Below are positions 12,001 through 60,610 of a DNA stretch of 64,000 nucleotides, piece by piece. The stretch is taken from contig NC_086108.1 of the NCBI RefSeq assembly GCF_963921235.1, positions 3,844,001-3,908,000 on the forward strand. Direction: 5' to 3'. Both the position numbers and the translations under genes were made by a program. A model generated the notes under the pieces. That model made no database searches. It saw only the letters and a program-made list of their open reading frames with translations, and had not been told where the DNA came from. The DNA is from Mobula hypostoma (Eukaryota). Each line of letters opens with the position of its first letter. The stretch's first letter is position 1.

Positions 12001-15000
12001 CAGGAGCCTGATGGCTGTGGGGTAATAACTGTTCCTGAACCTGGTGGTGTGGGACCTGAGGCTCATTGTGGTGAGTGAAGTTATCCACACTGGTTCAGGA
12101 GCCTGATGGTTGTGGGGTAATAACTGTTCCTGAACCTGGTGGTGTGGGACCTGAGGCTCATTGTGGTGGGTGAAGTTATCCACACTGGTTCAGGAGCCTG
12201 ATGGTTGTGGGGTAATAACTGTTCCTGAACCTGCTGGTGTGGAACCTGAGGCTCATTGTGGTGAGTGAAGTTATCCACACTGGTTCAGGAGCCTGATGGT
12301 TGTGGGGTAATAACTGTTCCTGAACCTGCTGGTGTGGGACCTGAGGCTCATTGTGGGGAGTGAAGTTATCCACACTGGTTCAGGAGCCTGATGTTTGTGG
12401 GGTAATAACTGTTCCTGAACCTGGTGGTGTGGGACCTGAGGCTCATTGTGGTGAGTGAAGTTATCCATACTGGTTCAGGAGCCTGACGGTTGTGGGGTAA
12501 TAACTGTTCCTGAACCTGCTGGTGTGGGACCTGAGGCTCATTGTGGTGAGTGAAGTTATCCACACTGGTTCAGGAGCCTGACGGTTGTGGGGTAATAACT
12601 GTTCCTGAACCTGCTGGTGTGGGACCTGAGGCTCATTGTGGTGAGTGAAGTTATCCACACTGGTTCAGGAGCCTGATGGTTGTGGGGTAATAACTGTTCC
12701 TGAACCTTGTGGTGTGGGACCTGAGGCTCATTGTGGTGAGTGAAGTTATCCACACTGGTTCAGGAGCCCGATGGTTGTGGGGTAATAATTGTTCCTGAAC
12801 CTGGTGGTGTGGGACCTGAGGCTCATTGTGGTGAGTGAAGTTATCCACACTGGTTCAGGAGCCCGATGGTTGTGGGGTAATAACTGTTCCTGAAGCTGGC
12901 GGTGTGGGACCTGAGGCTCATTGTGGTGGGTGAAGTTATCCACACTGGTTCAGGAGCCTGATGGTTGTGGGGTAATAACTGTTCCTGAACCTGCTGGTGT
13001 GGGACCTGAGGCTCATTGTGGTGGGTGAAGTTATCCACACTGGTTCAGGAGCCTGATGGTTGTGGGGTAATAACTGTTCCTGAACCTGCTGGTGTGGGAC
13101 CTGAGGCTCATTGTGGGGAGTGAAGTTATCCACACTGGTTCAGGAGCCTGATGGTTGTGGGGTAATAACTGTTCCTGAACCTGCTGGTTTGGGACCTGAG
13201 GCTCATTGTGGGGAGTGAAGTTATCCACACTGGTTCAGGAGCCTGATGGTTGTGGGGTAATAACTGTTCCTGAACCTGCTGGTGTGGGACCTGAGGCTCA
13301 TTGTGGTGAGTGAAGTTATCCACACTGGTTCAGGAGCCTGATGGTTGTGGGGTAATAACTGTTCCTGAACCTGCTGGTGTGGGACCTGAGGCTCATTGTG
13401 GTGAGTGAAGTTATCCACACTGGTTCAGGAGCCTGATGGTTGTGGGGTAATAACTGTTCCTGAACCTGCTGGTGTGGGACCTGAGGCTCATTGTGGGGAA
13501 TGAAGTTATCCACACTGGTTCAGGAGCCTGATGGTTGTGGGGTAATAACTGTTCCTGAACCTGCCGGTGTGGGACATGAGGCTCATTGTGGTGAGTGAAG
13601 TTATCCACACTGGTTCAGGAGCCTGATGGTTGTGGGGTAATAACTGTTCCTGAACCTGGTGGTGTGGGACCTCATTGTGGTGAGTGAAGTTATCCACACT
13701 GGTTCAGGAGCCTGATGGCTGTGGGGTAATAACTGTTCCTGAACCTGGTGGTGTGGGACCTGAGGCTCATTGTGGTGAGTGAAGTTATCCACACTGGTTC
13801 AGGAGCCTGATGGTTGTGGGGTAATAACTGTTCCTGAACCTTGTGGTGTGGGACCTGAGGCTCATTGTGGTGGGTGAAGTTATCCACACTGGTTCAGGAG
13901 CCTGATGGTTGTGGGGTAATAACTGTTCCTGAACCTGCTGGTGTGGGACCTGAGGCTCATTGTGGTGAGTGAAGTTATCCACACTGGTTCAGGAGCCTGA
14001 TGGTTGTGGGGTAATAACTGTTCCTGAACCTGCTGGTGTGGGACCTGAGGCTTATTGTGGTGGGTGAAGTTATCCACACTGGTTCAGGAGCCCGATGGTT
14101 GTGGGGTAATAACTGTTCCTGAAGCTGGCGGTGTGGGACCTGAGGCTCATTGTGGTGGTGAAGTTATCCACACTGGTTCAGGAGCCCGATGGTTGTGGGG
14201 TAATAACTGTTCCTCAACCTGCTGGTGTGGGACCTGAGGCTCATTGTGGTGGGTGAAGTTATCCACACTGGTTCAGGAGCCTGATGGTTGTGGGGTAATA
14301 ACTGTTCCTGAACCTGCTGGTGTGGGACCTGAGGCTCATTGTGGTGGGTGAAGTTATCCACACTGGTTCAGGAGCCTGATGGTTGTGGGGTAATAACTGT
14401 TCCTGAACCTGCTGGTGTGGGACCTGAGGCTCATTGTGGTGGGTGAAGTTATCCACACCGGTTCAGGAGCCTGATGGTTGTGGGGTAATAACTGTTCCTG
14501 AACCTGCTGGTGTGGGACCTGAGGCTCATTGTGGGGATTGAAGTTATCCACACTGGTTCAGGAGCCTGATGGTTGTGGGGTAATAACTGTTCCTGAACCT
14601 GCTGGTGTGGGACCTGAGGCTCATTGTGGGGAGTGAAGTTATCCACACTGGTTCAGGAGCCTGATGGTTGTGGGGTAATAACTGTTCCTGAACCTGCTGG
14701 TGTGGGACCTGAGTCTCATTGTGGTGAGTGAAGTTATCCACACTGGTTCAGGAGCCTGATGGTTGTGGGGTAATAACTGTTCCTGAACCTGCTGGTGTGG
14801 GACCTCAGTGTGGTGAGTGAAGTTATCCACACTGGTTCAGGAGCCTGATGGCTGTGGGGTAATAACTGTTCCTGAACCTGGTGGTGTGGGACCTGAGGCT
14901 CATTGTGGTGAGTGAAGTTATCCACACTGGTTCAGGAGCCTGATGGTTGTGGGGTAATAACTGTTCCTGAACCTGGTGGTGTGGGACCTGAGGCTCATTG

Positions 15001-18000
15001 TGGTGGGTGAAGTTATCCACACTGGTTCAGGAGCCTGATGGTTGTGGGGTAATAACTGTTCCTGAACCTGCTTGTGTGGAACCTGAGGCTCATTGTGGTG
15101 AGTGAAGTTATCCACACTGGTTCAGGAGCCTGATGGTTGTGGGGTAATAACTGTTCCTGAACCTGCTGGTGTGGGACCTGAGGCTCATTGTGGGGAGTGA
15201 AGTTATCCACACTGGTTCAGGAGCCTGATGGTTGTGGGGTAATAACTGTTCCTGAACCTGCTGGTGTGGGACCTGAGGCTCATTGTGGGGAGTGAAGTTA
15301 TCCACACTGGTTCAGGAGCCTGATGGTTGTGGGGTAATAACTGTTCCTGAACCTGGTGGTGTGGGACCTGAGGCTCATTGTGGTGAGTGAAGTTATCCAC
15401 ACTGGTTCAGGAGCCTGACGGTTGTGGGGTAATAACTGTTCCTGAACCTGGTGGTGTGGGACCTGAGGCTCATTGTGGTGAGTGAAGTTATCCACACTGG
15501 TTCAGGAGCCTGATGGTTGTGGGGTAATAACTGTTCCTGAACCTTGTGGTGTGGGACCTGAGGCTCATTGTGGTGAGTGAAGTTATCCACACTGGTTCAG
15601 GAGCCCGATGGTTGTGGGGTAATAATTGTTCCTGAACCTGGTGGTGTGGGACCTGAGGCTCATTGTGGTGAGTGAAGTTATCCACACTGGTTCAGGAGCC
15701 TGATGGTTGTGGGGTAATAACTGTTCCTGAAGCTGGCGGTGTGGGACCTGAGGCTCATTGTGGTGAGTGAAGTTATCCACACTGGTTCAGGAGCCTGATG
15801 GTTGTGGGGTAATAACTGTTCCTGAACCTGGTGGTGTGGGACCTGAGGCTCATTGTGGTGGGTGAAGTTATCCACACTGGTTCAGGAGCCTGATGGTTGT
15901 GGGGTAATAACTGTTCCTGAACCTGGTGGTGTGGGACCTGAGGCTCATTGTGGTGGGTGAAGTTATCCACACTGGTTCAGGAGCCTGATGGTTGTGGGGT
16001 AATAATTGTTCCTGAAGCTGGCGGTGTGGGACCTAAGAATCATTGTGGTGGGTGAAGTTATCCACACTGGTTCAGGAGCCCGATGGTTGTGGGGTAATAA
16101 CTATTCCTGAACCTTCTGGTGTGGGACCTGAGGCTCATTGTGGTGAGTGAAGTTATCCACTTTGGTTCAGGAGCCTGATGTTTGTGGGGTAATAACTGTT
16201 CCTGAACCTGCTGGAGTGGGACCTGAGGCTCATTGTGGGGAGTTAAGTTATCCACACTGGTTCAGGAGCCTGATGGTTGTGGGGTAATAACTGTTCCTGA
16301 ACCTGCTGGTGTGGGACCTGAGGCTCATTGTGGTGAGTGAAGTTATCCACACTGGTTCAGGAGCCTGATGGTTTTGGGGTAATAACTGTTCCTGAACCTG
16401 CTGGTGTGGGACCTGAGGCTCATTGTGGTGGGTGAAGTTATCCACACTGGTTCAGGAGCCTGATGGTTGTGGGGTAATAACTGTTCCTGAACCTTCTGGT
16501 CTGGGACCTGAGGCTGATTGTGGTGAGTGAAGTTATCCACACTGGTTCAGGAGCCTGATGGTTGTGGGGTAATAACTGTTCCTGAACCTGGTGGTGTGGG
16601 ACCTGAGGCTCATTGTGGTGAGTGAAGTTATCCACACTGGTTCAGGAGCCTGACGGTTGTGGGGTAATAACTGTTCCTGAACCTGGTGGTGTGGGACCTG
16701 AGGCTCATTGTGGTGAGTGAAATTATCCACACTGGTTCAGGAGCCTGACGGTTGTGGGGTAATAATTGTTCCTGAAGCTGGCGGTGTGGGACCTAAGGCT
16801 CATTGTGGTGGGTGAAGTTATCCACACTGGTTCAGGAGCCCGATGGTTGTGGGGTAATAACTGTTCCTGAACCTGCTGGTGTGGGACCTGAGGCTCATTG
16901 TGGTGGGTGAAGTTATCCACACTGGTTCAGGAGCCTGGTGGTTGAGGGGTAATAACTGTTCCTGAACCTGCTGGTGAGGGACCTGAGGCTCATTGTGGTG
17001 AGTGAAGTTATCCACACTGGTTCAGGAGCCTGATGGTTGTGGGGTAATAACTGTTCCTGAACCTGCTGGTGTGGGACCTGAGGCTCATTGTGGGGAGTGA
17101 AGTTATCCACACTGGTTCAGGAGCCTGATGGTTGTGGGGTAATAACTGTTCCTGAACCTGCTGGTGTGGGACCTGAGGCTCATTGTGGTGAGTGAAGTTA
17201 TCCACACTGGTTCAGGAGCCTGATGGTTGTGGGGTAATAACTGTTCCTGAACCTGGTGGTGTGGGACCTCATTGTGGTGAGTGAAGTTATCCACACTGGT
17301 TCAGGAGCCTGATGGCTGTGGGGTAATAACTGTTGCTGAACCTGCTGGTGTGGGACCTGAGGCTCATTGTGGTGAGTGAAGTTATCCACACTGGTTCAGG
17401 AGCCTGATGGTTGTGGGGTAATAACTGTTCCTGAACCTGCTGGTGTGGGACCTGAGGCTCATTGTGGTGGGTGAAGTTATCCACACTGGTTCAGGAGCCT
17501 GATGGTTGTGGGGTAATAACTGTTCCTGAACCTGCTGGTGTGGGACCTGAGGCTCATTGTGGTGAGTGAAGTTATCCACACTGGTTCAGGAGCCTGATGG
17601 TTGTGGGGTAATAACTGTTCCTGAACCTTCTGGTGTGGGATCTGAGGCTCATTGTGGTGAGTGAAGTTATCCACACTGGTTCAGGAGCCTGATGGTTGTG
17701 GGGTAATAACTGTTCCTGAACCTTCTGGTGTGGGACCTGAGGCTCATTGTGGGGAGTGAAGTTATCCACACTGGTTCAGGAGCCTGATGGTTGTGGGGTA
17801 ATAACTGTTCCTGAACCTGGTGGTGTGGGACCTGAGGCTCATTGTGGGGAGTGAAGTTATCCACACTGGTTCAGGAACCTGACGGTTGTGGGGTAATAAC
17901 TGTTCCTGAACCTGGTGGTGTGGGACCTGAGGCTCATTGTGGTGAGTGAAGTTATCCACACTGGTTCAGGAGCCTGACGGTTGTGGGGTAATAACTGTTC

Positions 18001-21000
18001 CTGAACCTGGTGGTGTGGGACCTGAGGCTCATTGTGGTGAGTGAAATTATCCACACTGGTTCAGGAGCCTGACGGTTGTGGGGTAATAATTGTTCCTGAA
18101 CCTGATGGTGTGGGACCTGAGGCTCATTGTGGTGAGTGAAGTTATCCACACTGGTTCAGGAGCCTGATGGTTGTGGGGTAATAACTGTTTCTGAACCTGG
18201 CGGTGTGGGACCTGAGGCTCATTGTGGTGGGTGAAGTTATCCACACTGGTTCAGGAGCCTGATGGTTGTGGGGTAATAACTGTTCCTGAACCTGGCGGTG
18301 TGGGACCTGAGGCTCATTGTGGTGGGTGAAGTTATCCACACTGGTTCAGGAGCCTGATGGTTGTGGGGTAATAACTGTTCCTGAACCTGCTGGTGTGGGA
18401 CCTGAGGCTCATTGTGGTGGGTGAAGTTATCCACACTGGTTCAGGAGCCCGATGGTTGTGGGGTAATAATTGTTCCCGAACCTGGTGGTGTGGGACCTGA
18501 GGCTCATTGTGGTGAGTGAAGTTATCCACACTGGTTCAGGAGCCTGATGGTTGTGGGGTAATAACTGTTCCTGAACCTGGTGGTGTGGGACCTCATTGTG
18601 GTGAGTGAAGTTATCCACACTGGTTCAGGAGCCTGATGGCTGTGGGGTAATAACTGTTCCTGAATCTGCTGGTGTGGGACCTGAGGCTCATTGTGGTGGG
18701 TGAAGTTATCCACACTGGTTCAGGAGCCTGATGGTTGTGGGGTAATAACTGTTCCTGAACCTTCTGGTCTGGGACCTGAGGCTGATTGTGGTGAGTGAAG
18801 TTATCCACACTGGTTCAGGAGCCTGATGGTTGTGGGGTAATAACTGTTCCTGAACCTGGTGGTGTGGGACCTGAGGCTCATTGTGGTGAGTGAAGTTATC
18901 CACACTGGTTCAGGAGCCTGACGGTTGTGGGGTAATAACTGTTCCTGAACCTGGTGGTGTGGGACCTGAGGCTCATTGTGGTGAGTGAAATTATCCACAC
19001 TGGTTCAGGAGCCTGACGGTTGTGGGGTAATAATTGTTCCTGAAGCTGGCGGTGTGGGACCTAAGGCTCATTGTGGTGGGTGAAGTTATCCACACTGGTT
19101 CAGGAGCCCGATGGTTGTGGGGTAATAACTGTTCCTGAACCTGCTGGTGTGGGACCTGAGGCTCATTGTGGTGGGTGAAGTTATCCACACTGGTTCAGGA
19201 GCCTGGTGGTTGAGGGGTAATAACTGTTCCTGAACCTGCTGGTGAGGGACCTGAGGCTCATTGTGGTGAGTGAAGTTATCCACACTGGTTCAGGAGCCTG
19301 ATGGTTGTGGGGTAATAACTGTTCCTGAACCTGCTGGTGTGGGACCTGAGGCTCATTGTGGGGAGTGAAGTTATCCACACTGGTTCAGGAGCCTGATGGT
19401 TGTGGGGTAATAACTGTTCCTGAACCTGCTGGTGTGGGACCTGAGGCTCATTGTGGTGAGTGAAGTTATCCACACTGGTTCAGGAGCCTGATGGTTGTGG
19501 GGTAATAACTGTTCCTGAACCTGGTGGTGTGGGACCTCATTGTGGTGAGTTAAGTTATCCACACTGGTTCAGGAGCCTGATGGCTGTGGGGTAATAACTG
19601 TTGCTGAACCTGCTGGTGTGGGACCTGAGGCTCATTGTGGTGAGTGAAGTTATCCACACTGGTTCAGGAGCCTGATGGTTGTGGGGTAATAACTGTTCCT
19701 GAACCTGCTGGTGTGGGACCTGAGGCTCATTGTGGTGGGTGAAGTTATCCACACTGGTTCAGGAGCCTGATGGTTGTGGGGTAATAACTGTTCCTGAACC
19801 TGCTGGTGTGGGACCTGAGGCTCATTGTGGTGAGTGAAGTTATCCACACTGGTTCAGGAGCCTGATGGTTGTGGGGTAATAACTGTTCCTGAACCTTCTG
19901 GTGTGGGATCTGAGGCTCATTGTGGTGAGTGAAGTTATCCACACTGGTTCAGGAGCCTGATGGTTGTGGGGTAATAACTGTTCCTGAACCTTCTGGTGTG
20001 GGACCTGAGGCTCATTGTGGGGAGTGAAGTTATCCACACTGGTTCAGGAGCCTGATGGTTGTGGGGTAATAACTGTTCCTGAACCTGGTGGTGTGGGACC
20101 TGAGGCTCATTGTGGGGAGTGAAGTTATCCACACTGGTTCAGGAACCTGACGGTTGTGGGGTAATAACTGTTCCTGAACCTGGTGGTGTGGGACCTGAGG
20201 CTCATTGTGGTGAGTGAAGTTATCCACACTGGTTCAGGAGCCTGACGGTTGTGGGGTAATAACTGTTCCTGAACCTGGTGGTGTGGGACCTGAGGCTCAT
20301 TGTGGTGAGTGAAATTATCCACACTGGTTCAGGAGCCTGACGGTTGTGGGGTAATAATTGTTCCTGAACCTGATGGTGTGGGACCTGAGGCTCATTGTGG
20401 TGAGTGAAGTTATCCACACTGGTTCAGGAGCCTGATGGTTGTGGGGTAATAACTGTTTCTGAACCTGGCGGTGTGGGACCTGAGGCTCATTGTGGTGGGT
20501 GAAGTTATCCACACTGGTTCAGGAGCCTGATGGTTGTGGGGTAATAACTGTTCCTGAACCTGGCGGTGTGGGACCTGAGGCTCATTGTGGTGGGTGAAGT
20601 TATCCACACTGGTTCAGGAGCCTGATGGTTGTGGGGTAATAACTGTTCCTGAACCTGCTGGTGTGGGACCTGAGGCTCATTGTGGTGGGTGAAGTTATCC
20701 ACACTGGTTCAGGAGCCCGATGGTTGTGGGGTAATAATTGTTCCCGAACCTGGTGGTGTGGGACCTGAGGCTCATTGTGGTGAGTGAAGTTATCCACACT
20801 GGTTCAGGAGCCTGATGGTTGTGGGGTAATAACTGTTCCTGAACCTGGTGGTGTGGGACCTCATTGTGGTGAGTGAAGTTATCCACACTGGTTCAGGAGC
20901 CTGATGGCTGTGGGGTAATAACTGTTCCTGAATCTGCTGGTGTGGGACCTGAGGCTCATTGTGGTGAGTGAAGTTATCCACACTGGTTCAGGAGCCTGAT

Positions 21001-24000
21001 GGTTGTGGGGTAATAACTGTTCCTGAACCTGCTGGTGTGGGAGCTGAGGCTCATTGTGGTGGGTGAAGTTATCCACACTGGTTCAGGAGCCTGATGGTTG
21101 TGGGGTAATAACTGTTCCTGAACCTGCTGGTGTGGGACCTGAGGCTCATTGTGGTGAGTGAAGTTATCCACACTGGTTCAGGAGCCTGATGGTTGTGGGG
21201 TAATAACTGTTCCTGAACCTTCTGGTGTGGGACCTGAGGCTCATTGTGGTGAGTGAAGTTATCCACACTGGTTCAGGAGCCTGATGGTTGTGGGGTAATA
21301 ACTGTTCCTGAACCTTCTGGTGTGGGACCTGAGGCTCATTGTGGGGAGTGAAGTTATCCACACTGGTTCAGGAGCCTGATGGTTGTGGGGTAATAACTGT
21401 TCCTGAACCTGGTGGTGTGGGACCTGAGGCTCATTGTGGGGAGTGAAGTTATCCACACTGGTTCAGGAACCTGACGGTTGTGGGGTAATAACTGTTCCTG
21501 ATACTGGTGGTGTGGGACCTGAGGCTCATTGTGGTGAGTGAAGTTATCCACACTGTTTCAGGAGCCTGACGGTTGTGGGGTAATAACTGTTCCTGAACCT
21601 GGTGGTGTGGGACCTGAGGCTCATTGTGGTGAGTGAAATTATCCACACTGGTTCAGGAGCCTGACGGTTGTGGGGTAATAATTGTTCCTGAACCTGGTGG
21701 TGTGGGACCTGAGGCTCATTGTGGTGAGTGAAGTTATCCACACTGGTTCAGGAGCCTGATGGTTGTGGGGTAATAACTGTTCCTGAACCTGGCGGTGTGG
21801 GACCTGAGGCTCATTGTGGTGGGTGAAGTTATCCACACTGGTTCAGGAGCCTGATGGTTGTGGGGTAATAACTGTTCCTGAACCTGGCGGTGTGGGACCT
21901 GAGGCTCATTGTGGTGGGTGAAGTTATCCACACTGGTTCAGGAGCCTGATGGTTGTGGGGTAATAACTGTTCCTGAACAAGCTGGTGTGGGACCTGAGGC
22001 TCATTGTGGTGGGTGAAGTTATCCACACTGGTTCAGGAGCCCGATGGTTGTGGGGTAATAATTGTTCCCGAACCTGGTGGTGTGGGACCTGAGGCTCATT
22101 GTGGTGAGTGAAGTTATCCATACTGGTTCAGGAGCCCGATGGTTGTGGGGTAATAACTGTTCCCGAACCTGGTGGTGTGGGACCTGAGGCTCATTGTGGT
22201 GAGTGAAGTTATCCACACTGGTTCAGGAGCCCGATGGTTGTGGGGTAATAACTGTTCCTGAACCTGGTGGTGTGGGACCTGAGGCTCATTGTGGTGGGTG
22301 AAGTTATCCACACTGGTTCAGGAGCCTGATGGTTGTGGGGTAATAACTGTTCCTGAACCTGGTGGTGTGGGACCTGAGGCTCATTGTGGTGGGTGAAGTT
22401 ATCCACACTGGTTCAGGAGCCTGATGGTTGTGGGGTAATAACTGTTCCTGAACCTGGTGGTGTGAGACCTGAGGCTCATTGTGGTGAGTGAAGTTATCCA
22501 CACTGGTTCAGGAGCCTGATGGTTGTGGGGTAATAACTGTTCCTGAACCTGGTGGTGTGGGACCTGAGGCTCATTGTGGTGAGTGAAGTTATCCACACTG
22601 GTTCCGGAGCCTGACGGTTGTGGGGTAATAACTGTTCCTGAACCTGGTGGTGTGGGACCTGAGGCTCATTGTGGTGGGTGAAGTTATCCACACTGTTTCA
22701 GGAGCCTGGTGGTTGAGGGGTAATAACTGTTCCTGAACCTGCTGGTGTGGGACCTGAGGCTCATTGTGGTGAGTGAAGTTATCCACACTGGTTCAGGAGC
22801 CTGATGGTTGTGGGGTAATAACTGTTCCTGAACCTGCTGGTGTGGGACCTGAGGCTCATTGTGGGGAGTGAAGTTATCCACACTGGTTCAGGAGCCTGAT
22901 GGTTGTGGGGTAATAACTGTTCCTGAACCTGCTGGTGTGGGACCTGAGGCTCATTGTGGTGAGTGAAGTTATCCACACTGGTTCAGGAGCCTGATGGTTG
23001 TGGGGTAATAACTGTTCCTGAACCTGGTGGTGTGGGACCTCATTGTGGTGAGTTAAGTTATCCACACTGGTTCAGGAGCCTGATGGCTGTGGGGTAATAA
23101 CTGTTGCTGAACCTGCTGGTGTGGGACCTGAGGCTCATTGTGGTGAGTGAAGTTATCCACACTGGTTCAGGAGCCTGATGGTTGTGGGGTAATAACTGTT
23201 CCTGAACCTGCTGGTGTGGGACCTGAGGCTCATTGTGGTGGGTGAAGTTATCCACACTGGTTCAGGAGCCTGATGGTTGTGGGGTAATAACTGTTCCTGA
23301 ACCTGCTGGTGTGGGACCTGAGGCTCATTGTGGTGAGTGAAGTTATCCACACTGGTTCAGGAGCCTGATGGTTGTGGGGTAATAACTGTTCCTGAACCTT
23401 CTGGTGTGGGACCTGAGGCTCATTGTGGTGAGTGAAGTTATCCACACTGGTTCAGGAGCCTGATGGTTGTGGGGTAATAACTGTTCCTGAACCTTCTGGT
23501 GTGGGACCTGAGGCTCATTGTGGGGAGTGAAGTTATCCACACTGGTTCAGGAGCCTGATGGTTGTGGGGTAATAACTGTTCCTGAACCTGGTGGTGTGGG
23601 ACCTGAGGCTCATTGTGGGGAGTGAAGTTATCCACACTGGTTCAGGAACCTGACGGTTGTGGGGTAATAACTGTTCCTGAACCTGGTGGTGTGGGACCTG
23701 AGGCTCATTGTGGTGAGTGAAGTTATCCACACTGGTTCAGGAGCCTGACGGTTGTGGGGTAATAACTGTTCCTGAACCTGGTGGTGTGGGACCTGAGGCT
23801 CATTGTGGTGAGTGAAATTATCCACACTGGTTCAGGAGCCTGACGGTTGTGGGGTAATAATTGTTCCTGAACCTGGTGGTGTGGGACCTGAGGCTCATTG
23901 TGGTGAGTGAAGTTATCCACACTGGTTCAGGAGCCTGATGGTTGTGGGGTAATAACTGTTTCTGAACCTGGCGGTGTGGGACCTGAGGCTCATTGTGGTG

Positions 24001-26254
24001 GGTGAAGTTATCCACACTGGTTCAGGAGCCTGATGGTTGTGGGGTAATAACTGTTCCTGAACCTGGCGGTGTGGGACCTGAGGCTCATTGTGGTGGGTGA
24101 AGTTATCCACACTGGTTCAGGAGCCTGATGGTTGTGGGGTAATAACTGTTCCTGAACCTGCTGGTGTGGGACCTGAGGCTCATTGTGGTGGGTGAAGTTA
24201 TCCACACTGGTTCAGGAGCCCGATGGTTGTGGGGTAATAATTGTTCCCGAACCTGGTGGTGTGGGACCTGAGGCTCATTGTGGTGAGTGAAGTTATCCAC
24301 ACTGGTTCAGGAGCCTGATGGTTGTGGGGTAATAACTGTTCCTGAACCTGGTGGTGTGGGACCTCATTGTGGTGAGTGAAGTTATCCACACTGGTTCAGG
24401 AGCCTGATGGCTGTGGGGTAATAACTGTTCCTGAATCTGCTGGTGTGGGACCTGAGGCTCATTGTGGTGAGTGAAGTTATCCACACTGGTTCAGGAGCCT
24501 GATGGTTGTGGGGTAATAACTGTTCCTGAACCTGCTGGTGTGGGAGCTGAGGCTCATTGTGGTGGGTGAAGTTATCCACACTGGTTCAGGAGCCTGATGG
24601 TTGTGGGGTAATAACTGTTCCTGAACCTGCTGGTGTGGGACCTGAGGCTCATTGTGGTGAGTGAAGTTATCCACACTGGTTCAGGAGCCTGATGGTTGTG
24701 GGGTAATAACTGTTCCTGAACCTTCTGGTGTGGGACCTGAGGCTCATTGTGGTGAGTGAAGTTATCCACACTGGTTCAGGAGCCTGATGGTTGTGGGGTA
24801 ATAACTGTTCCTGAACCTTCTGGTGTGGGACCTGAGGCTCATTGTGGGGAGTGAAGTTATCCACACTGGTTCAGGAGCCTGATGGTTGTGGGGTAATAAC
24901 TGTTCCTGAACCTGGTGGTGTGGGACCTGAGGCTCATTGTGGGGAGTGAAGTTATCCACACTGGTTCAGGAACCTGACGGTTGTGGGGTAATAACTGTTC
25001 CTGATACTGGTGGTGTGGGACCTGAGGCTCATTGTGGTGAGTGAAGTTATCCACACTGGTTCAGGAGCCTGACGGTTGTGGGGTAATAACTGTTCCTGAA
25101 CCTGGTGGTGTGGGACCTGAGGCTCATTGTGGTGAGTGAAATTATCCACACTGGTTCAGGAGCCTGACGGTTGTGGGGTAATAATTGTTCCTGAACCTGG
25201 TGGTGTGGGACCTGAGGCTCATTGTGGTGAGTGAAGTTATCCACACTGGTTCAGGAGCCTGATGGTTGTGGGGTAATAACTGTTCCTGAACCTGGCGGTG
25301 TGGGACCTGAGGCTCATTGTGGTGGGTGAAGTTATCCACACTGGTTCAGGAGCCTGATGGTTGTGGGGTAATAACTGTTCCTGAACCTGGCGGTGTGGGA
25401 CCTGAGGCTCATTGTGGTGGGTGAAGTTATCCACACTGGTTCAGGAGCCTGATGGTTGTGGGGTAATAACTGTTCCTGAACCTGCTGGTGTGGGACCTGA
25501 GGCTCATTGTGGTGGGTGAAGTTATCCACACTGGTTCAGGAGCCCGATGGTTGTGGGGTAATAATTGTTCCCGAACCTGGTGGTGTGGGACCTGAGGCTC
25601 ATTGTGGTGAGTGAAGTTATCCATACTGGTTCAGGAGCCCGATGGTTGTGGGGTAATAACTGTTCCCGAACCTGGTGGTGTGGGACCTGAGGCTCATTGT
25701 GGTGAGTGAAGTTATCCACACTGGTTCAGGAGCCCGATGGTTGTGGGGTAATAACTGTTCCTGAACCTGGTGGTGTGGGACCTGCGGCTCATTGTGGTGG
25801 GTGAAGTTATCCACACTGGTTCAGGAGCCTGATGGTTGTGGGGTAATAACTGTTCCTGAACCTGGTGGTGTGGGACCTGAGGCTCATTGTGGTGGGTGAA
25901 GTTATCCACACTGGTTCAGGAGCCTGATGGTTGTGGGGTAATAACTGTTCCTGAACCTGGTGGTGTGAGACCTGAGGCTCATTGTGGTGAGTGAAGTTAT
26001 CCACACTGGTTCAGGAGCCTGATGGTTGTGGGGTAATAACTGTTCCTGAACCTGGTGGTGTGGGACCTGAGGCTCATTGTGGTGAGTGAAGTTATCCACA
26101 CTGGTTCCGGAGCCTGACGGTTGTGGGGTAATAACTGTTCCTGAACCTGGTGGTGTGGGACCTGAGGCTCATTGTGGTGAGTGAAGTTATCCACACTGGT
26201 TCAGGAGCCTGATGGTTGTGGGGTAATAATTGTTCCTGAACCTGGTGGTGTGGG
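1..26254 (-). repeat. 95-bp tandem satellite (about 275-280 monomers, with 89-bp deletion variants) derived from a Rex1/Babar-type LINE ORF2 3' end; continues beyond the window start
   Basis: Consensus GTTATCCACACTGGTTCAGGAGCCTGATGGTTGTGGGGTAATAACTGTTCCTGAACCTGSTGGTGTGGGACCTGAGGCTCATTGTGGTGRGTGAA repeats with a 95-bp period (ORF track steps of 95 or 89). The minus strand reads RSHTTRFRNSYYPTTIRLLNQCG*. Confidence 0.98.
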
Positions 26255-26480
26255 TCCTAACGCTTCTGTACCTCCTTCGTGATGGCAGCAGTGAGAAGAG
26301 AGCATGGCCTGTGTGGTGGGGGTTGTTGATAATGGGTGCTGCTTTCTTGTGGATGTACTCAATGTTGAGGAGAGAACTTCATGCGATGGACTGGGCTGTA
26401 CCCAGCACTATTTGTAGGCTTTTCCATTGGTGTTTCCATGCCAGGCTGTGATGCAGCCAGTCACAATATCTCACTATTTC
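26255..26480 (-). mobile_element. Rex1/Babar-type LINE fragment, contiguous with the satellite (parent element body)
   Basis: Minus strand reads degenerate TGCITAWHGNT...KAAPIINNPHHTGHALFSLLPSRRRYRSVRTHTTRFRN, running without a break into the first monomer. Confidence 0.88.
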
Positions 26481-29939: not shown

Positions 29940-30520
29940 TTCAGAATCAGAACCAGCATGTAACGTGAAATTTGTTGTTTTTCAGCACCAGTACAGTGCA
30001 ATCCATAATAACCAAATCTGTGAATGACAGTAAATATATGCATTTTAAATAGTTAAATGAAACATTGAGTGCAAAAAAAGCAGTGAGGTACTGTTCTTGG
30101 GTTCAACATTCATTCAGAAATCTGATGGCAGAGGGGAAGAAGCTGTTCCTGAGTCATTGAGTGTGTGTCTTCAGGCTCCTGTACCTCCTCCCTGATGGTA
30201 ACAATGAGAAGAGGGCACGTCCTGGGTGATGGGGGTCCTTAATGACAGACGCTGCCCTTTTGGGGCATCGCTCCTTGAAGATGTCCTGGATACTACGGAA
30301 GTTAATGCCCATGATGGAGCTGACCGAGTTCACAACTCTCTGCAGCTTACTTCAATCCTGTGCAGTAGCCACCACCACCCCCCCACCCCCATACCAGATG
30401 GTGATGCAGCCAGTTAGAATCCTCTCCATGGTACATCTGTAGAAATTTACCAGTGCTTTTGGTGACACACCAAGTCTCCTCAAACTCTGAATGATATAAG
30501 CGGCTGTCGTGCCTTCTTTG
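29940..30520 (-). mobile_element. Rex1/Babar-type LINE 3' fragment (single, non-amplified copy of the satellite source region)
   Basis: ORF 30352-30669 has LRRLGVSPKALVNFYRCTMERILTGCITIWYG (DUF1891-like). Downstream: HPGRALFSLLPSGRRYRSLKTHTQ*LRNSFFPSAIRFLN and a (CTGATT)-type tail. Confidence 0.85.
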
Positions 30521-53759: not shown

Positions 53760-54540
53760 ACATGACATGAAATCGTAACCAGATTTGCCCAACCCATGTG
53801 ACAAATTACTCATCATAAACACACAACACAAAATACAATACAGACACAAAATTGATACTCGGCTCCTAGAGTGAAAATACAAAAACAAATACAACTAATA
53901 CTTACCAAAAATACATAATAAAGACCAACAAATGATAAACACAGAGAATGCCAAAAGAAACCAAAAACAATCCAACACATTACAGGATCCTGTAGCAGTT
54001 TAACTCAATCTGATTACTTAAACAGTAATCAAGTGGTAAACATCATTCACCAAAATGTTGCTTTAAAAAACAAACTCAAAACAGACAAATATCTTACTAT
54101 AAATACAAATCTGATCCAGTATTAGAGTCAGTTTCCCACAAATTATATTACGGTCGACCCGTTTTTACAGATAGGACAATCCATATTAACTGTCTGGATA
54201 TAATATTACAGGATAAACAAGCAAGAACAACTTACTTAATAGATATAGCCATTCCAAACACACACACCATACAGAAATCAACAAGTGAAATACACTAGCA
54301 ATATGCTGAATTCAAAGAGGAAACTGAAAGACTTTAGAACACGAAGAGGGTATACATTGTCCCAATAGTAATATCTACAACTGGTGTCTTCCAGAAGACA
54401 CTACACAATAGCATTAAACAATTAGGGCTACAAGAATAATCCAAAAGTTCCTAGCGATTGACAAATGTGTGTGCTAAGCTATGCCCATACCTCAGGTTTT
54501 ACCAGCTTGAGCTGAGAAAATGTAAATAATAATAATAAAA
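53760..54540 (+). mobile_element. R4/Dong-clade non-LTR retrotransposon 3' fragment (CCHC finger and restriction-like endonuclease), degenerate
   Basis: Manual translation gives RECQKKPKTIQHITGSC; TDRTIHINCLDIILQDKQARTTYLIDIAIPN; RVYIVPIVISTTG. Ends in (TAA)n. Confidence 0.75.
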
Positions 54541-54620
54541 GAGTTAATAATTAATACTGAGAACATGAGTTGCAGCCCTTGATAGTGAGTCCATAGGTTG
54601 TGGAATCAGTTCAGTGTTGG

Positions 54621-55131
54621 GGTGAGTGAAGTTATCCACACTGGTTCAGGAGCCTGATGGTTGTGGGGTAATAACTGTTCCTGAACCTGGTGGTGTGGGA
54701 CCTGAGGCTCATTGTGGTGAGTGAAGTTATCCACACTGGTTCAGGAGCCTGATGGTTGTGGGGTAATAACTGTTCCTGAACCTGCTGGTGTGGGACCTGA
54801 GGCTCATTGTGGTGAGTGAAGTTATCCACACTGGTTCAGGAGCCTGATGGTTGTGGGGTAATAACTGTTGAACCTGGTGGTGTGGGACCTGAGGCTCATT
54901 GTGGTGGTGAAGTTATCCACACTGGTTCAGGAGGCTGATGGTTGTGGGGTAATAACTGTTCCTGAAGCTGGTAGTGTGGGACCTGAGACTCATTGTGGTG
55001 AGTGAAGTTATCCACACTGGTTCAGGAGGCTGATGGTTGTGGGGTAATAACTGTTCCTGAAGCTGGTAGTGTGGGACCTGAGACTCATTGTGGTGAGTGA
55101 AGTTATCCACACTGGTTCAGGAGCCTGATGG
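54621..55131 (-). repeat. Short array (about 5.3 copies) of the 95-bp satellite, abutting a LINE 3' UTR at 54545-54620
   Basis: Same monomer and same GACCTGAGGCTCATTGTGG junction as the large array. Confidence 0.95.
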
Positions 55132-55199
55132 CCCGATTCGATGGGAACAGTTGCCTGCTGGGACATGTTGATGGTGGAGCTGCTATTTCACAGACCCAG

Positions 55200-55400
55200 C
55201 TTCGATCGCTACTTCTGGCGCTGTCTGTGTGTGGAGTTTGCACATCCTCTTTGTGACCACCTGGGTTTCCCCATGTTCTCTGCTTTCCTTCCACTTTCCA
55301 AAGGTTCAGCCTGTGGGTTGGTAAATTCACTTGCCACTGCAAATTGCCCCTAGTGGGAGTAAAATCTGTGGGGAGAAAAAAAGTGCAGGATTAGCATGGG
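55200..55400 (+). mobile_element. Degenerate V-SINE
   Basis: GTGTGGAGTTTGCACATCCTC..GGGTTTCCCCATGTTCTCTGCTTTCCTTCCAC..TAAATTCAC..GCAAATTGCCCC. Confidence 0.6.
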
Positions 55401-55404
55401 CAGC

Positions 55405-58350
55405 TGGTGAGCAACAATGCCTACATTTTATTAAGCTTTTGAGGAGATTAGGTATGTCACCAAAGTCTCTTGCAAAAGTCTACAGATGGACCTTGGAGAA
55501 CATTCTAACTGGTTGCATCACTATCTAATATGGAGAGGCCACTGCACAGGATCTGCAAAAAATCTGCAGATGGTTGCAGACTCCATCAGCTCCATCATGG
55601 TCACCAGCCTCCCCAGCACTGAGAACATCTCCAAAAGGTGATGCCTCAGATAGGCGGCATCCATCATTAAGGACCCCCATCACCATGACCATAAGACATA
55701 GGAGCAGAATTAGGCCATTTGGCCCCATCGAGTCTGCTCCACCATTCTATCCTGGATGATTCTTTATCCCCTCTTCAGTCCCATTCCCCAACCTTCTCCT
55801 CCCGTGGCTAAGCAAGAACCTATCAATCTCCGCCTTATATACACCCAGTGACCTGGCCTCCACAACAAGTTCCACAAATTCACCACCCTCTGGCTAAAGA
55901 AATGTCTCTGCATCTGTTTTAAATGGACACCCCTCCATTCTGAGGCTGTGCCCTCTTGTCCTAGACTCCTCCACCATGGGAAACATCCTTTCCACATCTA
56001 CTCTGTTTAGGCCTTTCAACATTTGAAAGGTTTCAATGAGATTCCCCCTTCATCTTTCTACATTCCAATGAGTACAGATCCAGAGCCAGCAAATGTTACT
56101 CATAAGATAACAAAATTCTATTCCACCATCTAAAACATTGATATACAGCATAAAAAGAAACAGTTCCAACACCGACCCCCGTGGAACACCACTAGTCACT
56201 GACAGCCAATTAGAAAAGGATCCTTTTATTCCCACTCACTGCCTCCTACCAATCAGCCAATGCTCTAACCATGTTAGTAACTTTCCTGTAAAATCATGGG
56301 CTCTTAACTTGGTAAGCCACCTCATGTGTGGCACCTCATCGAAGGCCTTCTGAAAGTCCCAATATACAACATCCACTGCATCCCCTTTATCTATTCTACT
56401 TGTAATCTCCTCAAAGAATTTCAACAGGTTTGTCAGGCAAGATTTTCCCTTAAGAAACCACGTTCTATCTTTGTTCTATCTTGTCCTGTCACCAAGTACT
56501 CCATCATCTCATCCTTAACAATTGACTCCAATATCTTCCCAACCACTGAGATCCGGATAACTTGTCTATAATTTCCCTTCTGCTGTCTTCCTCCTTTTTT
56601 AAAGAGTGGACTAACATTTGCAATTTTCCAGTCCTCTGGCATAATGCCTCCATAATCTCTACATACCCAACAATCTGTGATAGCTGAACAAGATCATTCA
56701 CCTTATTTCTTCTACTCTGTGCATTGAGATATAACACTTTGAGTACTGTATTTGCTAACCTTTTTGATTCTGCATCCCTAATGCACTGATACTCACCCTG
56801 CTGGCTGCAATTTTGTCCCATCATCTGCCTGACAGTATGACTGCACGTTATCTTTGCTTTTTTACCAACCATCCTATCCTGAGTCTCTTCACTCTGGTTC
56901 CCACCCCCCTGCCAAATTAGTTTAAACCCTCCCCAACAGCTCTAACAAACCTGCCCACAAGAATATTGGTTCCCCTCGGGTTTAGGTGCAACCCATCACT
57001 TTTGTACAGGTCATACCTCCCCCTGAAGAGATCCCAATGATCCAAGAACCTGAAGCCCTGCCCCCTGCACCAGCTTCTCAGCCACACATTTATCTGCCAA
57101 ATCATCCTGTTTCTACCCTCACTGGCATGTGGGGGTAGAAATCATTTCAGCAATCCAGAAATTACTACCCTGGGGGTCCTGTTTCTCAGCTTTCCACCGA
57201 GCTCTCTAAATTCTCTTTTCAGGACCTCTTTGCTTTTCCTTCCTATGTCATTGGTACCAATATGTACCAAGACATCTGGCTGCTCCCCCTCCTTCTCCAA
57301 AATGTTGTGGACACGATCCGAGACATCCCTGATCCTGGCATCTGGGAGGCAACATACCATCCGGGTGTCCCGCTCACATCCACAGAATCTCCTGTCTGTT
57401 CCCCTGACCATTGAGTCCCTCATCAGTAGCACTCCCCTCTTCTCCCTCTTTCCCTTCTGCACCACAGACCTATGCTCAGTGCCAGTAACCCAGTCACTGT
57501 GACATTCCCCTGGGAGGTCATCCCCCACAACAGTATCCAAAACGGTATACTTACTATTGGAGGGATTGGCCACAGGGGTGCTCTGCGCCAACTGCCTATT
57601 CACATTTCCATTTCTCTTGACAGTCACCCAGCTACTCGCCTCCTGCAACTTTGGGGTGACCACTTCCCTGTATCTCTGATCGATTATCTCTCACTTTCCC
57701 ATACAAGCTGAAGGTTATCCAGCTGCTGCTCAAGATCCCTAACATGGTGTTCAAGAAGCTGCAGTCAGATGCACTTCGTGTAGATGTAGCTCCCTCAGAG
57801 ACGCTGGGTCTCCCAGGACTCCAACATCTGGCATGAACACCCAACGGCCATTTACTACGCTAGGTACAGAAAGAGAAAAAAAAGGGAACCAATAGAAACT
57901 TACCCAGAGCCAATGCCTCTTTCAAGTCGAAACCTCCTTTGACCCAGGACGTGCCCTCTTCTCATTGTTATCATCAGGAAGGAGGTACAGGAGCCTGAAG
58001 ACACACACGATGAATCAGGAACAGCTTCTTTCCCTCTGTCATCCGATTTCTGAATGGACATTGAACCCATCTACAATTTTTTATAACAAAAAGTAAAAAA
58101 CTTTATTTGAATACAAAAAACATACGAAGGACAGGGGTTGCAATCCTGTTGCTAAATTCAAATTGAAATAGCGTTAAGAGCACCTGTAATACACTCAATT
58201 CCCTGGAGGGCCCACTGTTTTCAGAAATCCCTCACTAACCATGTACACCACCTCACTAGCTTTCCTGCTTTATTTCTGCAATTATAGTTTTATAATTTAT
58301 TGCAATGGACTGTTATCACAAAACAACACATTTCACAACATATGCCGGTG
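55405..58350 (+). mobile_element. Rex1/Babar-type LINE 3' fragment split by a CR1
   Basis: 55405-55685 reads LRRLGMSPKSLAKVYRWTLENILTGCIT..SIIKDPHH; it resumes at about 57942 with PGRALFSLLSSGRRYRSLKTH. Confidence 0.8.
55686..57940 (-). mobile_element. Internally deleted CR1 (ORF1 remnant, ORF2 pieces, 3' tail)
   Basis: ORF1 esterase 57142-57663 (HIGTND) and 56917-57105 (DGLH); short APE start; RT pieces 56050-56642; tail GACCATAAGACATAGG. Confidence 0.88.
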
Positions 58351-58389
58351 ATGATTCTGATTCTGGGGACTCAATGATTAATGGGTAAT

Positions 58390-59410
58390 TGACAAACTTC
58401 TACAGATGCCCAGTGGTTAGTATCTCAGCCCATCACAGGGAAAGCCCTCCTCACCATTGAGTACATTTACAAGGAGCGCTGCCACAAGAGAATATCCATC
58501 ATCCAGGATCCCCACCATCCATGCTCTCTTCTCACTACCACCATTGGGCAGGAGCTACAGGAGCCTCAGGTTCCACACCACCAGGTTCAGGAACAGTTAT
58601 TACCCCACAACCATCAGGCTCCTGAACCAGTGTGGATAACTTCACTCACCACAATGAGCCTCAGGTCCCACACCGCCAGGTTCAGGAACAGTTATTACCC
58701 CACAACCATCAGGCTCCTGAACCAGTGTGGATAACTTCACTCACCACAATGAGCCTCAGGTCCCACACCGCCAGGTTCAGGAACAGTTATTACCCCACAA
58801 CCATCAGGCTCCTGAACCAGTGTGGATAACTTCACTCACCACAATGAGCCTCAGGTCCCACACCGCCAGGCTCAGGAACAGTTATTACCCTACAACCATC
58901 AGGCTCCTGAACCAGTGTGGATAACTTCACTCACCACAATGAGCCTCAGGTCCCACACCGCCAGGTTCAGGAACAGTTATTACCCCACAACCATCAGGCT
59001 GCTGAACCAGTGTGGATAACTTCACTCACCACAATGAGCCTCAGGTCCCACACCGTCAGGTTCAGGAACAGTTATTACCCCACAACCATCAGGCTCCTGA
59101 ACCAGTGTGGATAACTTCAATCACCACAATGAGCCTCAGGTCCCACACCAGCAGGTTCAGGAACAGTTATTACCCCACAACCATCAGGCTCCTGAACCAG
59201 TGTGGATAACTTCACGCACCACAACTCTGAATTGACTTCACAAACTACACTTTCAAGGACTTCACAACTCATGTTCTAACTGTTATTTATTTTTTATTTG
59301 CAGAATTTGTCTTCTTTTGCACATTGGTTGTTTGTCAGTATTTATGTATAGTTTTTCATAAATTCTATTGCAGGAAAATAAATCTCCAAGTGGTATATGG
59401 TAATTTACAG
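58390..59410 (+). mobile_element. Rex1/Babar-type LINE 3' fragment containing a 7-copy satellite array
   Basis: ORF 58457-58639 (HALFSLPPLGRSYRSLRFHTTRFRNSYYP) leads into the array; the 3' UTR resumes at 59225. Confidence 0.88.
58561..59224 (+). repeat. 7-copy array of the 95-bp satellite, inverted relative to the other two arrays
   Basis: GAGCCTCAGG at 58561, 58656, 58751, 58846, 58941, 59036 and 59131. Confidence 0.97.
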
Positions 59411-59411
59411 G

Positions 59412-59830
59412 TACTCAAACTCATTCGTAAGGCCAGTGATGTTGTGGGGATGGAACTGGACTCTCTGACGGTGGTGTCTGAAAAGAGGATGCTGTCCAAG
59501 TTGCATGCCATCTTGGTCAATGTCTCCCATCCACTACATAATGTACTGGGTGGGCACAGGAGTACATTCAGCCAGAGACTCATTCCTCCGAGATGCAGCA
59601 CAGAGCGTCATAGGAAGTCATTCCTGCCTGTGGCCATCAAACTTTACAACTCCTCCCTTGGAGGGTCAGACACCCTGAGCCAATAGGCTGGTCCTGGACT
59701 TATTTCCTGGCATAATTTACATATTACTATTTAACTATTTATGCTTTTATTATTATTTATTATTTATGGTGCAACTGTAAGGAAAACCAATTTCCCCTGG
59801 GATCAATAAAGTATGACTATGACTATGACT
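59412..59830 (+). mobile_element. Rex1-type LINE 3' end (different subfamily)
   Basis: KLIRKASDVVG..SHPLH..RLIPPRCSTERHRKSFLPVAIKLYN; AATAAA followed by an (ATGACT)3 tail. Confidence 0.88.
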
Positions 59831-60142
59831 ACCTAGGCAATTAATGTACTTTGATTTTGACATTGTTTTTCCTAAGGTATGGCTGAAGGTGAGGGTAGGT
59901 TTACCTCTATTCCTGGGTCCACATGTAAATAGGTCTGGAGTCTGCTGACGATATCTCCAGCCTCTCAGCTCTGCCAAAAGCAAGCAGAGAGGGAATTGTT
60001 TCCACCTCAAGAGACACAGTGCTTAAAGGGAGATAGTCCTGCCCAGAGCGAATCTTGACTGACACAAGCCTGTGAATCTAGCAGGGGAGGCAGATTCATT
60101 TCAGAAACTAGCCAAGTACGTGATTCTACTGCCCAAGCAGGT

Positions 60143-60610
60143 TCTCCACTCTCTCTCTCTCTCCCCCTCTCTCACTTGTCTCAGTCTCTGTCTCTCTCTC
60201 TCCTTGTCTCTGTCTCTTTATCACACTGTCTCTCTCACTCATTCTCTCTCTTCCTGTTTCTGTCTCTCTCACTCTGTCTGTCTGTCTCTCTCACACATAC
60301 ACACTGCCTCTCATTCATTCTCTCTCACTTTTTTTTCTTTCTCTTTGTCTCTCTTTCTCTCTCTCAGTGTCTGTCCATCTCTCTCTACATCTCACACTGT
60401 CTCTCTCACTAATCTCTGTCTGTTTCCCTCTCTCTCACACACTCTGCCTCTCTCTCTTTCACTCTCTCCCTCCGCTCTGTTTTTCTCTAAATCTGTCTCT
60501 CTTTCTGTCTCTCTCTCTCACTGTCCCTATTTCCTTTTCTCTCTCTCTATCTCTCTCTCACTGTCTCTTTTTCTCTCTCTCTACCTCTGTTTCTCACTCT
60601 CTCTCTTTTG
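60143..60610 (+). repeat. Degenerate (CT)n/(CTGT)n polypyrimidine tract
   Basis: About 470 bp of almost exclusively C/T on the + strand. Confidence 0.95.

Follow-up and report, generated by a model that had tools for sequence, protein, structure and literature searches.

Satellites derived from parts of transposons, including the untranslated regions (UTRs) of long interspersed nuclear elements (LINEs), are well known (PMC12628747), as are tandem arrays carried inside transposons, for example those borne by Helentrons and miniature inverted-repeat transposable elements (MITEs) and the 3' UTR repeats of Ogre (PMC12628747, PMC7492417, PMC7004042). In maize, the tandem repeats CRM1TR and CRM4TR stem from centromeric retrotransposons; a second CRM1TR locus 1.4 Mb off has been tentatively ascribed to intrachromosomal gene conversion, 'possibly by recombination with a CRM1 sequence', and CRM arrays have been suggested to grow by non-allelic gene conversion (Sharma et al., 2013, PMC3648361). 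On the X chromosome of Drosophila simulans and D. mauritiana, an Rsp-like satellite has spread into pre-existing 1.688 clusters, and it has been proposed that this happened either through interlocus gene conversion, with the resident repeat as the seed, or through circles that reintegrated, with local expansion afterwards in both cases (Sproul et al., 2020, PMC7403614). Here we consider a 95-bp satellite made from the tail of a LINE in the ray Mobula hypostoma (GCF_963921235.1; genome 3.48 Gb, 200 contigs), which sits as near-identical arrays in many old and mutually diverged LINE copies. The starting point was a window of 64,000 nucleotides (nt), positions 3,844,001 to 3,908,000 of contig NC_086108.1 (C50:3844001–3908000 below).

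The resemblance to the fly system is close: new clusters are found only at homologous repeats, one junction occurs at many places, and the spread is on a single chromosome (PMC7403614). The first-pass annotation of the window had put it forward as a candidate for an undescribed system, which, given the published Drosophila X satellite model (PMC7403614), was an overstatement. As far as the fly account goes, there are nevertheless several differences. The landing sites in the ray are single, dispersed, old LINE tails and rather than satellite clusters; the satellite that arrives stems from the LINE tail too, hence the homology on both sides; the inserts lie exactly in register with chimeric edge units, where the fly has one microhomology and one variable junction (PMC7403614); and the genome is that of a vertebrate, with array density declining away from one 96-kb array. 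As with CRM1TR and CRM4TR, the satellite stems from a retrotransposon segment, but where the maize report describes two CRM1TR loci with a tentative explanation, there are at least 80 loci here with sequence-resolved edges, and the source is a LINE tail, not a long terminal repeat (LTR) or UTR. Among open-access papers and preprints we found no description of a LINE-tail satellite seeded into LINE tails, or of ray satellites of such a kind, and a term search of a 2025 review of transposon-derived satellites gave no occurrences of 'gene conversion' or 'eccDNA' (extrachromosomal circular DNA).

Three 95-bp arrays were called in the window by Tandem Repeats Finder (TRF). The first is the right-hand ~26 kb of a main array (window positions 1..26258, minus strand, which is the LINE-sense strand; 277.6 copies, 95% matches), the second has ~5.4–5.5 units (54617..55131, minus strand), and the third has 7.0 units (58561..59224, plus strand) and is in register with its host LINE. 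In the sense of array 3 the unit reads GAGCCTCAGG...CACCACAAT, and its translation, ...YRSLRSHTTRFRNSYYPTTIRLLNQCG*, gives the end of an open reading frame (ORF) followed by the first bases of the 3' UTR, so that the unit is composed of the last LINE ORF2 codons and the start of the 3' UTR. It is 80–88% identical by alignment to array-less LINE tails and, being a head-to-tail LINE-homologous unit in a long array (~96 kb, 95% matches), is a transposon-derived satellite. The host element is a non-LTR retrotransposon, i.e. a LINE. The ORF directly upstream of the tail matches PF09004 (E=1.2e-8), and its 26 longer homologues include 15 with PF00078 (reverse transcriptase, RT), one of which also has PF03372 (AP-type endonuclease); the named homologues are gene models of rays and teleost fishes. 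A Pfam search of five ORFs from degenerate copies of the LINE gave no RT domain, PF09004 being the sole match.

The junction between units, CACAAT|GAGCCTCAGG, is absent from the parent LINE. The 16-mer across it, CACAATGAGCCTCAGG, has 267 matches in the window at no more than one mismatch (0.01 expected from shuffles), and a 35-mer across it has 953 exact matches genome-wide and 1,890 at up to three mismatches, while its reversed control has none genome-wide. The junction reads ...CACCACAAT|GAGCC, whereas a simple exchange within the shared ACA predicts ...CACCACAGGAGCC instead; the sequence found is CACCACAATGAGCC, not CACCACAGGAGCC. As the junction is not the product of a simple exchange in the sole shared bases, its independent recurrence is unlikely. 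The observation from which the work set out, that three 95-bp arrays have near-identical monomers and one non-parental junction, is borne out by the TRF calls, by the 267 junction matches and by the low divergence of the inner units given below.

When the neighbouring sequence was fetched it proved to be array throughout (L043–L047), and the main array is continuous over C50:3774241–3870258, i.e. ~96 kb and ~1,010 units. The array of about 277 copies that was first reported is therefore real as far as it goes, but it is cut by the window start, and the window holds only the right-hand quarter of it. The whole ~96 kb lies within one LINE tail, bounded by LINE body and LINE UTR and with host-like edge units. 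Its 5' edge is hosted by an old ORF2 3' body (26259..26476, minus strand; best non-self matches only 73–81% identical, on many contigs), and the outer end of the first unit resembles the host. Besides the main array, C50 carries at least 80 separate short arrays between 0.54 and 11.22 Mb, a lower bound pooled from several searches and listings. Flanks were compared in a sample of 47 arrays: besides the window's three, it comprised 42 short C50 arrays from outside the window and a further two from C5, with the 3' end of the main array (L043) treated apart. The short arrays of the sample have 2 to 42 units each. Arrays were split into units by wrap-around alignment to the main-array consensus, itself built from 183 units of exact length. 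The three-locus pattern of the window recurs throughout the 47 arrays examined and in at least 80 arrays on C50.

The hosts are old and differ from one another, while the arrays are young and alike. A LINE-body 5' flank is present in 31/47 arrays and a UTR-like 3' flank in 41/47, the others being truncated or interrupted hosts; counting these truncated hosts, all 47 arrays lie at sites with a resident homologous repeat, and the junction is shared across loci whose resident repeats differ. Median pairwise identity is 0.741 for the 5' host flanks (465 pairs) and 0.771 for the 3' flanks (820 pairs), in local alignments, which flatter identity. There are no near-identical hosts among the 47: among flank alignments of 60 nt or more, the highest identities are 91% (64 nt) and 89% (103 nt), and the host 3' UTRs are of at least two types, distinguished by indels. 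The inner consensuses of the arrays have a median pairwise identity of 1.0 and a minimum of 0.937 (561 pairs, 34 arrays), and over 29,830 inner-unit positions from 46 arrays there are 422 differences (1.41%) from the main-array consensus. Judged by sequence comparison, the host LINE copies are old, since the best non-self matches of the 5' host flanks are 85% identical for array 3 and 81% for the main array. Two outcomes that the first-pass annotation had named as fatal to its proposal did not materialise: segmental duplication is excluded, as no flanks are shared, and flanks (medians 74% and 77%) and array consensuses (100%) have not diverged equally. Arrays borne by transposons, like those described here, can be short, dispersed in euchromatin and flanked by transposon sequence; in the accounts available, however, they travel with the element, so that flanks and arrays are of one age and spread genome-wide, whereas the flanks here are old (74–77% against ~100% for the arrays) and the arrays young and regional.

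The two short arrays of the window illustrate the range of hosts. Array 3 is preceded by old LINE ORF2 3' body (58426..58560, plus strand), with best non-self matches of 79–85% identity on many other contigs, and followed by LINE 3' UTR (59225..59330, plus strand, outer limit approximate, read directly and by alignment). It is thus in register inside its LINE, as had been noticed, with an upstream body of only ~135 nt. Array 2 is followed by a sequence that is UTR-like by alignment (54510..54616, minus strand, outer limit approximate), but it starts mid-monomer (CCATCAGGCTCC...) and on its 5' side meets non-LINE DNA from 55132, so its host is 5'-truncated inside a unit. Of the diverged LINE flanks that had been reported, both 3' UTR strings are as quoted and the three 5' flanks do differ; the one at 55132, however, is not LINE. 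Hosts in general keep from 0 to a few hundred nt of LINE body, as in a family with a shared 3' end and many 5'-truncated copies, and relatives of the host flanks number 5,122–6,112 first-look candidates on many contigs.

The edge units are chimeric, their outer sequence coming from the host and their inner sequence from the satellite. First units diverge from the consensus by 3.13% and last units by 3.71%, against 1.41% for inner units, and the differences are concentrated on the host side: 86 in the host-side half of first units against 28 in the other half, and 105 against 33 in last units. Edge variants are repeated in the adjoining unit in only 11/116 cases (first units) and 6/138 (last units). 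In two-unit arrays, the one junction lies in a satellite-type patch of about a hundred bases with host-type sequence on both sides. Among hosts of the second UTR type, the point at which the last unit switches from satellite to host varies between arrays; it comes early in L006, L023, L024, L025_0, L030 and L033_0, while in L033_1 and L041_1 it is delayed to the extreme end of the unit. Some arrays (W2, L018, L031_0, L035) start mid-monomer against non-LINE DNA. Homogenisation within arrays also predicts a gradient towards the ends, so the gradient alone does not date the arrays.

The arrays are confined almost entirely to one region. Two complete censuses were made, one with a 3'-edge query (the junction and last unit running into A-type UTR) and one with a 5'-edge query (LINE body, first unit and junction). 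The first gave 28 matches, 27 of them on C50:0.96–8.06 Mb and one on C80, and all 23 matches of the second fell on C50:0.76–11.22 Mb. When the two are pooled (four arrays in common), 46/47 distinct arrays lie on C50:0.76–11.22 Mb, which is ~0.3% of the genome, in place of the genome-wide spread expected of a transposon-borne array. Density falls with distance, with 12 of the 27 C50 arrays of the 3'-edge census less than 1 Mb from the main array and 5, 5, 4 and 1 in the next four Mb steps. Arrays with the 95-bp junction were found off C50 at three places, twice on C5 (L009, L010) and once on C80 (C80:1070795–1070900); they have one to two units and sequence resembling that of hosts, and may reflect infrequent transfer from one chromosome to another. 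An apparent strand bias to the right of the main array (~30 plus against 5 minus among the matches listed) disappeared in the complete censuses (13 forward and 15 reverse; 9 forward and 14 reverse). As a separate observation, five pairs of arrays on C50 lie within ~1.5 kb of each other (3597k/3598.5k, 4087.6k/4089.0k, 4362.1k/4363.8k, 5435.5k/5436.0k and 6379k/6381k), four of them in opposite orientation, where ~1.4 pairs would be expected from the mean spacing.

Related LINE tails elsewhere are single. None of the nine closest relatives of the array-3 host, all on other contigs, carries an array; tails were found in eight of them (none in L050) and are 80–88% like the unit, except for one 31-nt match at 96.8%. 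A query of 'last unit + UTR' gave, among its 40 best matches in the genome, 26 on C50, most of them with further units; the remaining 14 are on twelve other contigs at 85–95% identity, and 13 of these 14 are single-tailed, the C5 locus alone having an array. Around the C50 arrays, 177 kb of non-array sequence holds 14 array-less tails (at least 66% identity), which suggests, from a rough and biased sample, that about one in ten detectable tails of the C50 region carries an array.

Some variants distinguish the main array from the dispersed ones. Its common variants are at positions 21 (C/G, ~50:50), 86 (T/C) and 88 (A/C). The 21 G is found in 105/209 main-array units (window part) against 3/314 dispersed inner units, and 86 C and 88 C are also nearly missing from those 314 units. 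The main array further has a recurrent junction spacing of 184 nt, implying an 89-nt unit, that is nearly absent from the dispersed arrays. All five inner units of array 3, which is 32 kb from the main array, have 20 G, a variant shown by only a minority of main-array units. Some rarer variants are common to neighbouring arrays, e.g. those at 8.052 and 8.061 Mb. The arrays at C50 5303086 and 5435960 have two rare variants in common.

The same LINE tail has given a second satellite. The unit in this case is 70 bp long and is bounded by an 8-bp direct repeat, CCATCAGG, that the LINE itself contains. The family forms many arrays, mostly on C96:0.3–4.8 Mb, C91:60.8–72.8 Mb, C67 and small contigs (173 matches from 91 scored candidates). 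Four loci were read (L058, C67:56551344–56554000; L059 and L061 on C96; L060 on C91), each with 20–28 units. All four run in register into differing LINE tails or UTRs at the 3' end, and three have differing LINE bodies upstream, the fourth (L061) beginning at the edge of the sequence examined; the units are alike while the hosts differ, at four loci on three contigs. The 70-bp junction could recur independently. The family nonetheless repeats the layout of uniform units in differing hosts, so the pattern is not peculiar to one set of loci. A practical point follows for annotation, as arrays of the 70-bp satellite have been annotated as proteins in ray genomes: the ray gene models hit in a protein search with the tail (P0001–P0008) prove to be a 70-bp LINE-tail array read in three frames, and are probably annotation artefacts. 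They are named 'mucin-2-like', 'trithorax group protein osa-like' or 'uncharacterized protein'.

The process that we think probable for the 95-bp arrays is homology-guided transfer of DNA into pre-existing LINE tails, by gene conversion from nearby or synthesis-dependent strand annealing (SDSA), followed by local amplification. The satellite would have been born once from a LINE tail, from the last ORF2 codons and first UTR bases, creating CACAAT|GAGCCTCAGG, and its DNA would since have been copied repeatedly, at the DNA level, into resident LINE tails of one chromosome region, with the short homology between tail and monomer guiding the transfer on both sides. A break in a resident tail may have been repaired from a nearby array on the same chromosome, through ectopic gene conversion via SDSA or a related or replicative template switch. 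Repair synthesis would cross one or more junctions before the new strand re-annealed in register, and the tail would gain whole units in this way and keep its own outer sequence. Unequal exchange would then enlarge some seeds, to the 2–42 units of the sample and the ~1,010 of the main array. We infer the repair of breaks, the direction in which sequence moved and the subsequent amplification from a junction shared among unrelated old hosts, from their chimeric edges, and from arrays restricted to 11 Mb while relatives elsewhere go without. That the arrays are regional and thin out with distance speaks for a donor on the chromosome, met through proximity, and against free circles or RNA. Paques, Leung and Haber are said to have shown in 1998 that SDSA in yeast, when a break is repaired from a donor richer in repeats, adds whole repeats in register; that system was engineered with identical repeats, whereas the events here are natural and between sequences 75–90% alike.

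Several points weigh against this account. The homology available is at most 95 bp and often 15–25% diverged at the edges, a poor substrate for canonical homologous recombination, and short-homology template switching may therefore be nearer the truth than classical recombination. The arrays would have been gained after LINE insertion, but neither an empty allele nor an orthologous array-less copy of any host came to light. Parts of window positions 54000–60000 are present in 20 public-run records, and the four runs compared gave short contigs swamped by repeat copies, none bridging an array; unique flank pieces differed not at all in X1, by 9/347 and 6/302 in X5 and by 20/240 in X16, and a close relative is about 2–2.6% diverged in such pieces. 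Today's main array is not a random donor: its variants are almost absent from the dispersed arrays, so either the spread predates the variants or the donors were other arrays. With three arrays on other contigs, and the 70-bp family on several, the process is not strictly in cis. A Mantel test on 27 hosts did not demonstrate co-variation of their 5' and 3' flanks (r=0.07, a value reached in 541 of 2,000 permutations). Finally, edge substitutions match the states of array-less LINE tails in 97/248 cases (39%) against 131/409 (32%) for inner units (p=0.08), a comparison based on 12 reference tails only and with a chance level of 38/285.

The strongest rival keeps the seeding and changes the donor, to circles of n x 95 bp that an array has shed as extrachromosomal DNA. 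Circles would give the same in-register product with chimeric edges, would make sense of the three arrays off C50 and, if released from a homogeneous block, could explain why the dispersed arrays are without the main array's common variants. Satellite circles are moreover documented (PMC3225859) and have been proposed for the Drosophila case (PMC7403614). Free circles should, however, reach similar LINE tails on all chromosomes, where thousands of first-look candidates (5,122–6,112) await them, and the census places 46/47 arrays in 0.3% of the genome with density declining away from the main array. We regard a circular donor as unlikely for these reasons.

A donor in the form of RNA is much less probable still. 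Here synthesis by RT would jump from LINE RNA to a satellite transcript and back, or cDNA would template the repair; homology-guided jumps would also yield in-register chimeric edges, and the arrays that start mid-monomer require just one jump. The ages do not fit, as the hosts are old (best relatives 81–85%) and the arrays 1.4% from consensus, and an RNA that acts in trans should not stay within 11 Mb of one contig. Retrotransposition of an array-bearing master LINE, whose flanks then diverged while concerted evolution kept the arrays alike, has very little in its favour beyond the mid-monomer starts against non-LINE DNA (W2, L018, L031_0, L035), which resemble 5'-truncated insertions, and the fact that transposons with internal arrays are common (PMC7004042, PMC12628747). 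The 3' UTRs of the hosts fall into different types with indels, no flanks are common to any of the hosts, retrotransposition is genome-wide where the arrays are regional, related tails elsewhere are single (arrays in 0/9; 13/14 single), the edge units hold host-type sequence, and the master element would still need the inter-locus transfer that it should replace. Independent duplication of each LINE tail in place, with the copies later overwritten by homogenisation, can be set aside as hardly credible: tandem repeats have indeed arisen in LINE tails more than once, the 70-bp satellite using the LINE's own CCATCAGG, but the 95-bp junction did not come from a simple ACA exchange and is unlikely to recur, host variants are not common to neighbouring units, and the junction would still have to be transferred between loci.

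Since every other account still needs transfer of the satellite between loci, junction included, seeding by transfer is the simplest reading. The first-pass annotation had argued along these lines, and its rejection of an old repeat-bearing master stands, with host relatives elsewhere lacking arrays and the spread regional; so does its rejection of independent slippage, as simple microhomology does not explain the one junction and edge variants are not repeated in neighbouring units. Its proposal of homology-directed seeding followed by local amplification is supported, with gene conversion favoured among the routes it offered (gene conversion, circles and cDNA).

The window also contains LINE tails with no array. 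A strongly diverged tail of a related LINE subfamily (GGAAGGAGGTACAGGAGCCTGAAG...; 57960..58070, plus strand, read directly) is too diverged for detection by the satellite consensus and is not among the consensus matches, and a tail fragment at 30103..30178 (minus strand) has 67% identity to that consensus. In contigs of all four public runs, window positions 55410–55684 are joined to 57942–58070, with ~2,260–2,295 bases skipped, and the two pieces read as one diverged LINE 3' region with a nested insertion of 2.26 kb (55685–57941) between them. A degenerate (CT)n tract lies at 60149–60606 (228 copies, 63% matches).

How satellites arrive at new loci is a long-standing question for which the evidence has been mostly indirect, and here at least 80 events can be read at base level in one genome. 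What is new is the use of single old transposon fragments as landing sites, the two-sided homology with exact register and readable crossover points, the series of events from seed size to 96 kb graded by distance, and a vertebrate genome with two parallel families. Resident sequence survives on both sides of the arrays, crossover points are legible inside the edge units, and array sizes run from seed-size products, which hold a single extra unit, through tens of units to the one array of about a thousand. How donors are chosen, how long the tracts are and how much divergence is tolerated can thus be measured from sequence alone, and colonisation of new loci by satellites becomes a question that sequence comparison can answer. 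A more general view, which we offer as speculative and on balance doubtful, is that dispersed LINE tails serve as a lattice of landing pads, on which short-homology repair allows a newborn satellite to take over a whole chromosome end, in a process that is general and repeatable in ray genomes. It takes the 95-bp and 70-bp satellites as at least two independent instances, each in the terminal 5–12 Mb of different contigs. If true, this process may give birth to, and replace, the chromosome-specific and possibly centromere-associated satellites of ray genomes.

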